From: a virus
Length of the DNA stretch: 64,000 nucleotides
IMG/VR virus record: IMGVR_UViG_3300030105_001626
Coordinates: 1 to 64,000 of that record
Direction: 5' to 3' (one strand)
Shown here: piece by piece, positions 38,475 to 63,353 of the stretch
Layout: each line of letters opens with the position of its first letter
How positions within the stretch are numbered: the stretch's first letter is position 1
Made by a program: the position numbers and the translations under genes
Notes under the pieces: generated by a model
The model's input: only the letters and a program-made list of their open reading frames with translations
Told to the model about the DNA's origin: nothing
Databases searched by the model: none

Positions 38475-39005
38475 TTAAAAGTAATCGCCAATTCCACCAC
38501 TTAAAGAACCAGTTTGAACTGGCTTTTCTGCAGGAGTTTCTACCGGTGCTTTTGGTCCACTTCCCATAGAATATCCACTTTCATCTTCTACTGGATATGA
38601 TGATTGTTTTGTTTCAAATTCCCAACCTTCTTTTACAAATTGTTGAAAGTTTGGTGGTGTCCATGTTGTAGGTTTTAGAATCTTACCATCTTCTCTCTTT
38701 GTTACCAATCCAGTTTCTTTATTAATCTTAATTAAATTATTTGCAGCACCTTCTTTCCAGATACCATCAACATTTAATCCTAATGAATTCATGTAGCCAA
38801 GAATAACCCATATTGAATCAAAACAAGCATCAATGATTTCTGGTTTATCGCCAATAGCCATGCTTGTGTGTAATTCTGCAATCTCTTCTTTTATAAGATT
38901 ATAATATAGGTCAGATTGTGGTTGATTAACCGTTGTTGTGGTTTGTCCTGCAGCTTTCATAAAGGTCTTTACATCTTTATTAAAATTTGTGATTGCTTTA
39001 GTCAT
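38475..39005 (-). CDS. MazG-like nucleotide pyrophosphohydrolase
   Basis: LIKEEIAEL, DACFDSIWV, NNL.K, REDGKILKP..W..P motifs. Confidence 0.85.
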   Translation of the reverse strand: MTKAITNFNKDVKTFMKAAGQTTTTVNQPQSDLYYNLIKEEIAELHTSMAIGDKPEIIDACFDSIWVILGYMNSLGLNVDGIWKEGAANNLIKINKETGLVTKREDGKILKPTTWTPPNFQQFVKEGWEFETKQSSYPVEDESGYSMGSGPKAPVETPAEKPVQTGSLSGGIGDYF

Positions 39006-39472
39006 AATATTTTCCTTGATTTATAATATTTTTTCATTCCTTCTGATATCTTAGTCTTTGTTTCGTCACTATGCCATTCTAGTTCTTTTGCCTTTTGATT
39101 AGCAACACGAGAGGCACGATTGTTTCTAGCGTGTTCGGCAGTTCTTACTTTACCACTTGCAGACTTAGACATTTTTCTTTTGGTCTCTTCAGAATGTTTT
39201 TTGCCAATCTTACTTGCAATCATTCTAGCTTTGCCTTCTGGTGACATTCTATTTTTCATACTCCCACCAATTGAGCGTGCCATGAAAAGCGCCTCGTCCT
39301 TATTCATTTGACCTTTTAGCATATGCCAGGCCATAAAATCTTCTTGTTTTCCATGTTGTTCGTATAATTTCTTATGAGCGAGACTATGGTCTTCAACTGA
39401 AAGTTCTATAAGATTGGATGGTTCGTCTGTTCCACCCATGTGCTTAGGTATTATGTGATGTTTATGTTTCAT
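39002..39472 (-). CDS. free-standing HNH homing endonuclease with NUMOD3 DNA-binding repeats
   Basis: HHIIPKHMGGTD..SNL..L...DH...H HNH core; GKKHSEETKRKMS and HSDETKTKISE NUMOD3 repeats; start reassigned to MKHK, downstream of the CTAAATA promoter. Confidence 0.88.
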   Translation of the reverse strand: MKHKHHIIPKHMGGTDEPSNLIELSVEDHSLAHKKLYEQHGKQEDFMAWHMLKGQMNKDEALFMARSIGGSMKNRMSPEGKARMIASKIGKKHSEETKRKMSKSASGKVRTAEHARNNRASRVANQKAKELEWHSDETKTKISEGMKKYYKSRKIL

Positions 39473-39477
39473 ACATC

Positions 39478-39504
39478 TATTTAGTAGCATCGTGAGTTCA
39501 AACC
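39478..39504 (-). promoter_or_regulatory. late-type promoter (CTAAATA) with adjacent putative endonuclease operator
   Basis: GGTTTGAACTCACGATG (39504-39488) matches the spliced pqqA junction GGTTTGAAGTGACTATG at 14/17 nt. Confidence 0.65.
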
Positions 39505-39520
39505 TAACTCTTTGCCCAAC

Positions 39521-39543
39521 AAAAAACCCTCTTGCGAGGGTTT
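39521..39543 (-). terminator. intrinsic terminator after pqqA
   Basis: AAACCCTC-GCAA-GAGGGTTT followed by TTTG; GNRA loop. Confidence 0.85.
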
Positions 39544-39605
39544 AATGATTTTACTATTCTGATAAAGCGTTTGTAATTTGTAACAACTTTATATATTGTG
39601 AATAA

Positions 39606-39955
39606 TTATCTATTCATAACATACATAGTCACTTCAACGTAGTGGTGGCAGGCGTTCCAGAGTATTCGTCTTTTTGCCTGTTGCCTTGTTATCGATGTGG
39701 CTCTTTATCCTCACCTTCAATATATCACTATATTGTCCAGACTATATCATCAAGACTTGTTGTCTTGCCGGGCACTCGTGTCATCTTCATCACTGTTCTA
39801 GTGGTATGATGTTAGTCGTTGAACCTTCTCATAATCCCTTATGAGCTTGGATGCTGATTGTCTCGAAAGATGTCCCAGCAGTTCACCCGGTTTTAATTGG
39901 GCCTAAATCAAATTAACCCAAAACGCATTTCAGTTGCTGATGGAGTTGTCCACAT
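39606..39955 (-). CDS. pqqA: pyrroloquinoline quinone precursor peptide PqqA, split gene: exon 1 39955-39916, exon 2 39637-39606
   Basis: Spliced product MWTTPSATEMRFGFEVTMYVMNR (23 aa) with E-x-x-x-Y core; AAGGA RBS; the unspliced frame stops at ...RFGLI*. Confidence 0.95.
39638..39915 (-). mobile_element. group I self-splicing intron without ORF (278 nt, IA-like)
   Basis: 5' exon ends in U; P1 UUGGGU/GCCCAA with U.G at the splice site; P GAACUGCUGGG; Q CAAUCAGCAUCC; R GGUUCAACGACUA; S GAUAUAGUC; P3 CCGGG/CCCGG; P8 CAAGAC/GUCUUG; P9 CAAUAUA-GUGA-UAUAUUG; terminal omega-G. Confidence 0.95.
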
Positions 39956-40062
39956 AGTATTGATTCCTTTTTAAAAAGTTATATTAAAGAACCAGGTCAA
40001 CAGAGAGTATTTCTACAAAGTCTGCCTTGAGATTTAACAAACAATTTCTATTTGTTAAAGGT

Positions 40063-40091
40063 ATTTTATACTACTTGACAGCTAAAAGCAA
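40063..40091 (-). promoter_or_regulatory. sigma70-type promoter of pqqA
   Basis: TTGCTT-N17-TAAAAT, about 100 nt upstream of the pqqA ATG. Confidence 0.55.
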
Positions 40092-40118
40092 TAGAGAAAA
40101 TCATTAAATTGTTCTAGA

Positions 40119-40583
40119 CTATTTTATTAGTCCTACCTTGTATACAGTTTTGCCATTTTCTTTCATAGCAGTTAAAGCTCTTTTACGGTTGCTACCATCT
40201 GTTTTGTGACTTACATGAACCCAACCAGAGTCATCAATACCTGGAGTATAAAACTCCAATATTACTTGGTCGAAGTCGAGGTTGTCTACAATATACTGAG
40301 CCAGGTCTGCATTGGCGACACCAGGACACTCTATGTCGGCAGCTTCACCGTGACAGTGTTGTGATTTAGATGAACCGCCTACTGCTTTGTTAAGTTCTGG
40401 ACCACGATATCCTGAATTGATTGTTGTTACGCCAAAATGGTCTCTGACCTTTTGCACAACATTATCGAATAAGGCTTTTGCATTTTCTAGATGACCATCA
40501 TCTGGAGTATTATCAATGTCCATTCGAATTGCTGTTTGGCTTTTAGTAAATTCTTGTAGTGTAAAGTTTTCAGATAGTTTCAA
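40119..40583 (-). CDS. peptidase M15 family (endolysin candidate)
   Basis: SGYR..LN.AVGG...SQH..GEAAD and WVHVS motifs. Confidence 0.9.
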   Translation of the reverse strand: MKLSENFTLQEFTKSQTAIRMDIDNTPDDGHLENAKALFDNVVQKVRDHFGVTTINSGYRGPELNKAVGGSSKSQHCHGEAADIECPGVANADLAQYIVDNLDFDQVILEFYTPGIDDSGWVHVSHKTDGSNRKRALTAMKENGKTVYKVGLIK

Positions 40584-62759: not shown

Positions 62760-63353
62760 TTATTCTCCGAGAGCTATTTTTGTACCAAGACAAGGACTGG
62801 CCGCATAAATTTTATCATCATATTCTTTAACTACATACATTATCGGTTCAGCAAAATTATTGGGATTCATTGTAAACGAACCTTTAATAGCACCAGTAGC
62901 TGTCGTTACTGTAATTTTATTTGTCGCATCATGAGTATTAATAAGTCTTACTCGTCTCGCATAATTAATATTTTGAGGACTACCATTAACTTTAAATGTT
63001 AAACCTGTTGTAGTACCAGCAACTGTAACAACTGGTGTGCCATCTGTATTTTCAAGTTGAGCTGTTAATGAAAGTGGCCATGCCTGTACATCTGTCTCAT
63101 TTCCACTAACGAGTTGACCAGTAACCTGTTTAACTCTATAGAAATTATTTGCACCATTATTATATCCTACGATACGACCAGCTGGTTGTGTACCAGTTAC
63201 TACTATTGTATCGCCAACATTAACTGGAGCACCAGTTGATATTGTTATCTCAAAAGCTGTATCTGCTACAGCAACTGTACCGATTGTTGGACTGGCTGCA
63301 CCAAGAACTGTTAAAGTCACTTCGGCCGATTGTACTTGTATATTCTGTGTCAT
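62760..63353 (-). CDS. putative virion structural protein
   Basis: Thr/Val/Gly-rich beta composition; lies inside the head operon. Confidence 0.65.
   Translation of the reverse strand: MTQNIQVQSAEVTLTVLGAASPTIGTVAVADTAFEITISTGAPVNVGDTIVVTGTQPAGRIVGYNNGANNFYRVKQVTGQLVSGNETDVQAWPLSLTAQLENTDGTPVVTVAGTTTGLTFKVNGSPQNINYARRVRLINTHDATNKITVTTATGAIKGSFTMNPNNFAEPIMYVVKEYDDKIYAASPCLGTKIALGE

Follow-up and report, generated by a model that had tools for sequence, protein, structure and literature searches.

One intron-encoded homing endonuclease, I-TevI of phage T4, has been shown to repress itself through a look-alike of its homing site. Its operator, which overlaps the gene's late promoter, is identical to the homing site at 15 of 20 positions; the enzyme binds the two equally well and cuts the operator about 100-fold less (PMC2988022). 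An earlier reading of the DNA considered here, made from its letters alone, invoked this precedent of an operator that resembles the homing site and overlaps a late promoter, and described it correctly (PMC2988022). Collaborative homing joins the psbA intron of cyanophage S-PM2 to the free-standing endonuclease F-CphI (PMC6083498; for the concept, PMC2988022), and trans homing involving mobE and I-TevIII is described in T4 nrdB (PMC2790892).

The stretch of DNA analysed here (the window, 64,000 nt; WIN in comparisons with other loci, which are denoted L001 and so on) is part of a 77.6-kb contig (34% G+C) that belongs to a T4-like marine phage, and DNA near-identical to it is present in seawater metagenomes from many studies. 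The minus strand carries all the relevant genes of the locus, in the order M15 peptidase gene, pqqA exon 1, intron, pqqA exon 2, terminator, the 17-mer with which this study is concerned, CTAAATA, HNH-NUMOD3 gene and MazG-like gene, and the coordinates are collected in Table 1. Spliced PqqA would read MWTTPSATEMRFGFEVTMYVMNR. Examined by eye, exon UUGGGU pairs with intron GCCCAA at the splice site, with U.G at the 5' splice site and with G as the last base of the intron.

Table 1. Features of the pqqA-HNH locus, in window positions.
Feature	Position	Strand	Remarks
pqqA exon 1 (MWTTPSATEMRFG + first base of Phe codon)	39955..39916	-	ends ...TTTGGGT; identical in L205 and L003
Group I intron, ORF-less, splitting GGGT/TTGAAG	39915..39638	-	Rfam RF00028, 65.3 bits, E 1.6e-15; 278 nt
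pqqA exon 2 (TT GAA GTG ACT ATG TAT GTT ATG AAT AGA TAA)	39637..39606	-	reads (F)EVTMYVMNR*
Intrinsic terminator after pqqA	39543..39524	-	terminator at the same position in L001, L026, L201, L003, L205
Target-site mimic AGGTTTGAACTCACGATG, candidate operator	39505..39488	-	17-mer of the earlier reading = 39504..39488
Late-promoter-like 8-mer box ACTAAATA	39485..39478	-	5 nt before ATG; 7-mer CTAAATA = 39484..39478
Free-standing HNH-NUMOD3 homing endonuclease gene	39472..39002	-	156 aa, N-terminus MKHKHH; stop overlaps start of MazG-like gene

The locus resembles that of I-TevI in having a sequence like the homing site at the late promoter of the endonuclease gene (15/20 in T4 and 14/17 here, against a homing site that is in this case presumed), and in that the mimic, like the T4 operator, lacks a part of the site thought to be necessary for cutting. 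The differences are considerable. I-TevI is a GIY-YIG enzyme encoded inside its own intron, whereas the enzyme here is of the HNH-NUMOD3 type and is encoded outside an intron that has no ORF; the T4 operator overlaps the promoter, whereas the mimic lies just upstream of the box; the mimic derives visibly from a fragment of pqqA and travels with a free-standing cassette; and binding and repression, shown for I-TevI, are putative here. F-CphI and psbA provide a parallel in layout: a group I intron without an ORF interrupts a small auxiliary gene that is conserved, the gene for a free-standing endonuclease follows immediately downstream (the adjacency by which collaborative homing is recognized), and the presumed target extends across the point of intron insertion. 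F-CphI, however, belongs to a different nuclease family (Endo VII-like), and its cleavage at the insertion site has been shown, whereas here such cleavage is presumed. I know of no target mimic at the F-CphI promoter. The likeness to mobE is that of a free-standing HNH endonuclease mobilizing (here presumably) a neighbouring intron that is unable to move alone, although mobE sits between nrd genes, and I know of no description of a homing-site mimic before mobE. Finally, the mORFs of fungal mitochondria are mobile endonuclease ORFs with duplicated gene ends. They share with the present locus a fragment of the end of the target gene beside the endonuclease ORF, in frame in most copies, but there the displaced gene end is formed at the insertion site and decays, while in the present case the fragment is conserved and borne by the cassette, beside a local pqqA and terminator that are both intact. 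What is new, then, is the enzyme family, the free-standing state of the gene, and a cassette-borne mimic with codon-periodic conservation.

The sequence-only reading had proposed that GGTTTGAACTCACGATG (39504..39488, minus strand) imitates the spliced pqqA junction, and its description stands: the two are identical at 14 of 17 bases (two of the three mismatches between the mimic and the window's own junction fall at wobble positions), the 17-mer precedes the CTAAATA box by 3 nt and the HNH-NUMOD3 start (39472) by 16 nt, and its in-frame reading is FELTMLLNR, as compared to FEVTMYVMNR in PqqA. A 17-mer with three or fewer mismatches is expected by chance 0.25 times per window. Scored against a position matrix built from 79 pqqA alleles, the mimic is equalled at only about 6 of 155,248 contig positions, so that the chance of such a score within the 60 nt before the HNH start is about 0.002. 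The window copy scores low against the target matrix (3.6, while most other copies lie between 7 and 16), and it retains all of the positions that are invariant in the family (T4, T6, A8, T11, A13 and C14). The boundary of intron and exon 2 (39640..39624) likewise agrees with the junction at 14 of 17 bases, only the three bases left of the insertion site being different. Another matrix match, at 63257, sits within a structural gene, where it reads AFEIT, and was set aside as chance.

HNH homologues adjoining pqqA occur in L001, L003, L011, L026, L201 and L204-L206 (the metagenome scan for relatives yielded 6 loci) and in 12 loci retrieved by a pattern containing the mimic, which show linkage to pqqA and not mimic frequency. 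The conservation upstream of orthologous HNH genes that the earlier reading had proposed as a check was found: a block of the form GG.T.TGA.GT.AC occurs at the same offset in all HNH cassettes readable at the DNA level (about 21 loci in about 14 lineages), and in every one of them there is a pqqA gene within about 600 nt, in tandem or convergent orientation alike. With this recurrence, the resemblance of the 17-mer to the junction is not a matter of chance. The block lies 30-34 nt before the ATG in WIN, L205, L003, L001, L026, L011, L201, L204 and L206, and it is present also in the 12 further pqqA-linked loci. It is separated by 1-5 nt (2 nt in the window) from the 8-mer box, which itself stops exactly 5 nt short of the ATG, and the DNA upstream of it cannot be aligned between loci. 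The block is absent from all 58 distinct upstream regions of HNH paralogs that do not adjoin pqqA, and the case that the earlier reading named as contrary to its proposal, the motif before NUMOD3 genes unlinked to pqqA, was not found in this set. A weak matrix match before the HNH genes of L035 and L036 proved to be the C-terminus of a dCMP deaminase gene and was discarded as chance. In the nine loci whose retrieval did not depend on the mimic, there is no variation at T4, T6, A8, T11, A13 and C14; position 10 is other than G in WIN, L205 and L003, which represent one lineage. No copy of the mimic retains the Tyr codon that follows in pqqA.

The pattern of conservation within the block follows the codons of pqqA. 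Among the nine loci, the first two codon positions of the mimic have a pairwise identity of 0.78 and the third one of 0.51, as compared to 0.37 in the 18 nt upstream of the mimic and 0.44 at four-fold degenerate sites of the HNH gene. Mismatches to the pqqA target consensus number 13 of 108 at positions 1 and 2 and 29 of 54 at position 3 (Fisher 3e-8, on cells that lack phylogenetic independence). Taken together with these identities, the block is maintained by selection, and yet it is untranslated, to judge from a shift of frame between it and the HNH gene in L201 and the L208 group and from L001 and L026, where stops precede the mimic and the upstream start codon is absent. Codon-periodic conservation at a non-coding site would be expected of a site read by a protein that has evolved to tolerate wobble variation in its target. 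It is an unusual signature, one that could be used to locate endonuclease targets in metagenomes.

An ordinary expression signal might also be conserved before a gene, with the likeness to pqqA incidental: an upstream promoter element, an N-terminal extension beginning at the ATG at 39490, or one arm of a hairpin that masks the start. That ATG is indeed in frame with the HNH gene, gene callers extend several of the homologues through the block, and other HNH subfamilies use hairpins around the promoter. But the block is out of frame or behind stops in L201, L208, L001 and L026, the other late promoters of the contig have no such upstream sequence, and those of its bases that are conserved coincide exactly with the non-wobble positions of pqqA codons. 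The hairpin idea was dropped when RNAalifold, applied to the nine loci, predicted zero conserved pairs over the block. I therefore regard an expression signal of this kind as very improbable.

The origin of the block is visible in those homologues whose reading frames extend upstream of MKH. These frames read MFGFEVTTINKC, MFGYEVTMINKC and MGFEVTIILNRC, some homologues still have MFGFEVT.INKC ahead of MKH, and the promoter box aligns with the last pqqA codons, Met-Asn-Lys. The extended frames indicate that block and box together descend from pqqA codons, (M)(R)FGFEVT..MNK. The sequence-only reading had offered, as an alternative to an operator, a decayed duplicate of the 3' end of pqqA. As to origin, the alternative is borne out by the homologue frames; as to decay, it fails, since conservation of the block far exceeds what neutral change would leave.

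It may still be asked whether the block is a neutral relic, a remnant left as a second pqqA copy or a duplicated 3' end decays, without function at least in the window's lineage. Besides the clear descent from pqqA (MFGFEVTTINKC and MGFEVTIILNRC before MKH, and a box that aligns with Met-Asn-Lys codons), there is the fact that the block has diverged among WIN, L205 and L003 (84-87% identity across the locus) at about the pace of the remaining intergenic DNA, and the window copy is among the weakest matches to the target. Against this, four-fold sites in the HNH gene are near saturation while positions 1 and 2 of the block are not (0.44 and 0.78, with the flank at 0.37), the boundaries of the block are constant, the block moves with the cassette in both orientations, and the window copy keeps every base that is invariant in the family. 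A comparison of L001 with the endonuclease-free L121, L104 and L196, which are otherwise collinear with it and lack the HNH-NUMOD3 gene, places the insertion after the pqqA terminator and ahead of the next gene, beginning about 14 nt before the mimic, and in L011, L204, L210, L212, L214 and L216-L219 the whole unit of mimic, promoter and HNH gene is inverted, converging on pqqA. It follows from the insertion boundary and the inverted units that the block is part of the cassette, as opposed to a gene end displaced anew at each site. The locus thus departs from the neutral gene end of the mORF type, the fragment being cassette-borne in both orientations and its identity being 0.78 as compared to 0.37-0.44 for neutral sequence. 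A neutral relic seems to me unlikely. Local gene conversion from the phage's own pqqA was also considered and rejected: agreement at wobble positions, judged by eye in WIN, L003, L205, L026 and L201, is no better than random, and 15 nt is too short.

Phage pqqA homologues (PqqA has 23 amino acids) were sought by means of a DNA pattern in the upstream codons of the gene, giving 120 matches, of which 111 are pqqA, all of them intron-less; just one of the roughly 110 pqqA loci reached through this neutral pattern has a neighbouring HNH gene. Common in viral contigs, the gene occurs as well in cultured phages of Methylophilales, and viral pqqA has been reported from Lake Baikal (PMC7678222). The literature searched makes no mention of an intron in phage pqqA. 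Endonuclease-free alleles are canonical in 75 of 79 cases (GG. TTY GAR GT. AC. ATG TAY, encoding FEVTMY) and altered in 4, whereas 11 of the 12 endonuclease-bearing, intron-less lineages have a non-canonical pqqA (TLY, EIS, EIT or EITAY). For the first five lineages the association of altered pqqA with presence of the endonuclease gives a Fisher value of 4e-6. The altered genomes are L001, L026, L011, L201, L204, L208, L210, L212, L214, L217 and L218, with alleles FEVTLY, FEISMY, FEITMY and FEITAY, and the one exception, L216, contains the cassette and two tandem copies of pqqA, both canonical. At least three different kinds of alteration occur, the commonest of which change the Met codon beside the Tyr codon that is absent from the mimic. 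Part of the association may come from shared descent via co-conversion.

The three genomes with an intron (WIN, L205 and L003) have exons that are canonical or of the EIT type, and in them the intron splits the site between bases 1 and 2 of the Phe codon, within the conserved block. This pattern of alleles and introns is what would be expected if the canonical pqqA site is the target of the enzyme. The HNH enzyme presumably cuts intron-less pqqA at or near the insertion site, as suggested by a conserved mimic that spans the site and by the altered sites of endonuclease-bearing genomes that lack the intron.

The intron itself is nearly 100% identical in the three genomes, amid flanks of 84-87% identity and neighbouring genes that have diverged by 13-16%, and this contrast points to a recent spread. 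An insertion of 45 nt near the intron's 3' end (about 39640-39685) is peculiar to the window. Contigs from RNA libraries cover the locus outside 39426..39687, the interval that includes the mimic, exon 2 and the promoter region. One such contig is identical to the window over 222 nt (40136..39915) and then passes, precisely at the predicted junction, into sequence like exon 2, though differing from the window's exon 2 and reading FEVTMYVC. It could represent either spliced RNA or an intron-less allele, and the different exon 2 points to the presence in wild phages, exactly where the intron inserts, of either a recombination boundary or an allele without the intron.

These observations can be put together in the following way. 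The 18 bases of the mimic are a non-coding piece derived from uninterrupted pqqA (codons Gly-Phe-Glu-Val-Thr-Met) and form the first element of a mobile cassette, followed by the putative late promoter and the HNH-NUMOD3 gene, that inserts just downstream of pqqA. The enzyme most likely recognizes canonical pqqA, GG.TTTGAAGT.AC.ATG, across the intron insertion site, and its hosts would escape self-cutting either because the ORF-less intron splits the site, as in WIN, L205 and L003, or because the pqqA codons have been altered. The mimic appears to retain the bases read by the enzyme without the Tyr-codon region that follows them, and such a site might be bound without being cut. Made late, the enzyme would bind directly upstream of its own promoter and so reduce further transcription, with no cutting, after the manner of I-TevI. 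That the conserved, pqqA-derived block is a binding site for the endonuclease and acts as an autorepression operator of the I-TevI type is the reading to which, on balance, I incline, though not strongly. What speaks against an operator is that the mimic lies upstream of the box and not over it. T4-type late promoters require no upstream element, and occlusion of the promoter from this position is for both reasons plausible and not evident.

Binding might serve a different purpose, the enzyme nicking or weakly cutting the block so as to promote recombination and the spread of the cassette, or the block acting as a homology anchor at a broken pqqA. The evidence of conservation holds equally for this possibility, and the cassette has been captured beside pqqA in both orientations, from which it follows that at least one insertion did not arise by ordinary homology-driven homing. 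There is also the precedent of I-HmuI, an HNH intron endonuclease that nicks intron-bearing and intron-less DNA alike. On the other hand, a fixed site directly upstream of the box (1-5 nt) suits a regulatory site, while a recombination site needs no such placement; 15 nt is short for homology-driven repair; and no arrangement in which pqqA is fused to HNH was seen. I consider such a role quite unlikely.

An operator of the I-TevI type presupposes a working promoter, and the box has features of one. Of 69 distinct upstream regions of the HNH family, 26 place TAAATA exactly 5 nt ahead of the ATG, while distances of 1-4 or 6-14 nt do not occur at all, a strictness of spacing that argues for the box being functional. 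None of these 26 regions has a Shine-Dalgarno sequence. ATAAATA or CTAAATA boxes also precede other genes of the contig, and the upstream sequence of those late promoters does not resemble the mimic. The T4-type late promoter box lies at -13..-6. With such a box 5 nt before the ATG, the transcript would begin at the A of the ATG, and CTAAATA, the putative promoter, is thus predicted to give a leaderless mRNA.

The protein encoded downstream matches the Pfam families HNH (22.1 bits, cut-off 21.4) and NUMOD3 (30.7 bits, cut-off 20.4), and all of its homologues begin with MKH.HH; the closest of these, P0002-P0005, are 59-77% identical to it and were compared as to their called N-termini. An AlphaFold model (pLDDT 83) gave in a Foldseek search weak matches to the HNH motif, none with E <= 0.001, and a search of PDB sequences likewise gave weak HNH-motif matches at most. 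The C-terminal DNA-binding modules of the pqqA-linked HNH enzymes have been shuffled between lineages, and this shuffling might accompany changes in the mimic, a co-variation for which the position-10 variant of the single lineage of WIN, L205 and L003 is the one instance, or might signal relaxed constraint. The endonucleases are mosaic, that of the window resembling L001 in its N-terminal half and L003 in its C-terminal half. A tail of the form CPHC...H...H, like a zinc finger, ends the enzymes of L205, L003 and P0003-P0005 and is absent from the window's.

Should the operator be real, the logic of I-TevI would hold as well for an HNH-NUMOD3 enzyme whose gene stands free and which works together with an intron lacking an ORF. 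The locus also yields predictions without prior biochemistry: a recognition sequence (GG.T.TGA.GT.AC), resistant alleles of pqqA (TLY, EIS and EIT) and an operator. It is possible, though I would stop short of calling it probable, that the free-standing homing-endonuclease cassettes of phages generally begin with an untranslated copy of their own target serving as operator and conserved only at the non-wobble bases that the enzyme reads. Were this so, the recognition code, target gene and host escape alleles of uncharacterised endonucleases could be read from sequence.

Certain observations concern other HNH genes and other pqqA loci. L043, L049, L062 and L065, of another HNH subfamily, have a conserved motif like AACTACATAGAGTT between terminator and late box, which could be the mimic of a different target, and in further subfamilies inverted repeats surround or precede the box (e.g., L030, L039, L066 and L075). 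Widespread as an auxiliary gene among the phages of methylotrophs, pqqA is an arena for competing selfish elements, and it may be a hot spot for several of them. Downstream of the FEVTLY pqqA in L120 lies a different, endonuclease-like ORF with a DGNLYWK motif (recognized by eye), typical of homing endonucleases of the HNH/AP2 type. The cultured methylophage Melnitz (L207, MZ577097.1, 76140-76205) encodes an unannotated PqqA-like peptide, opposite to a strand annotated as a hypothetical CDS, in a genomic context unlike that of the window.
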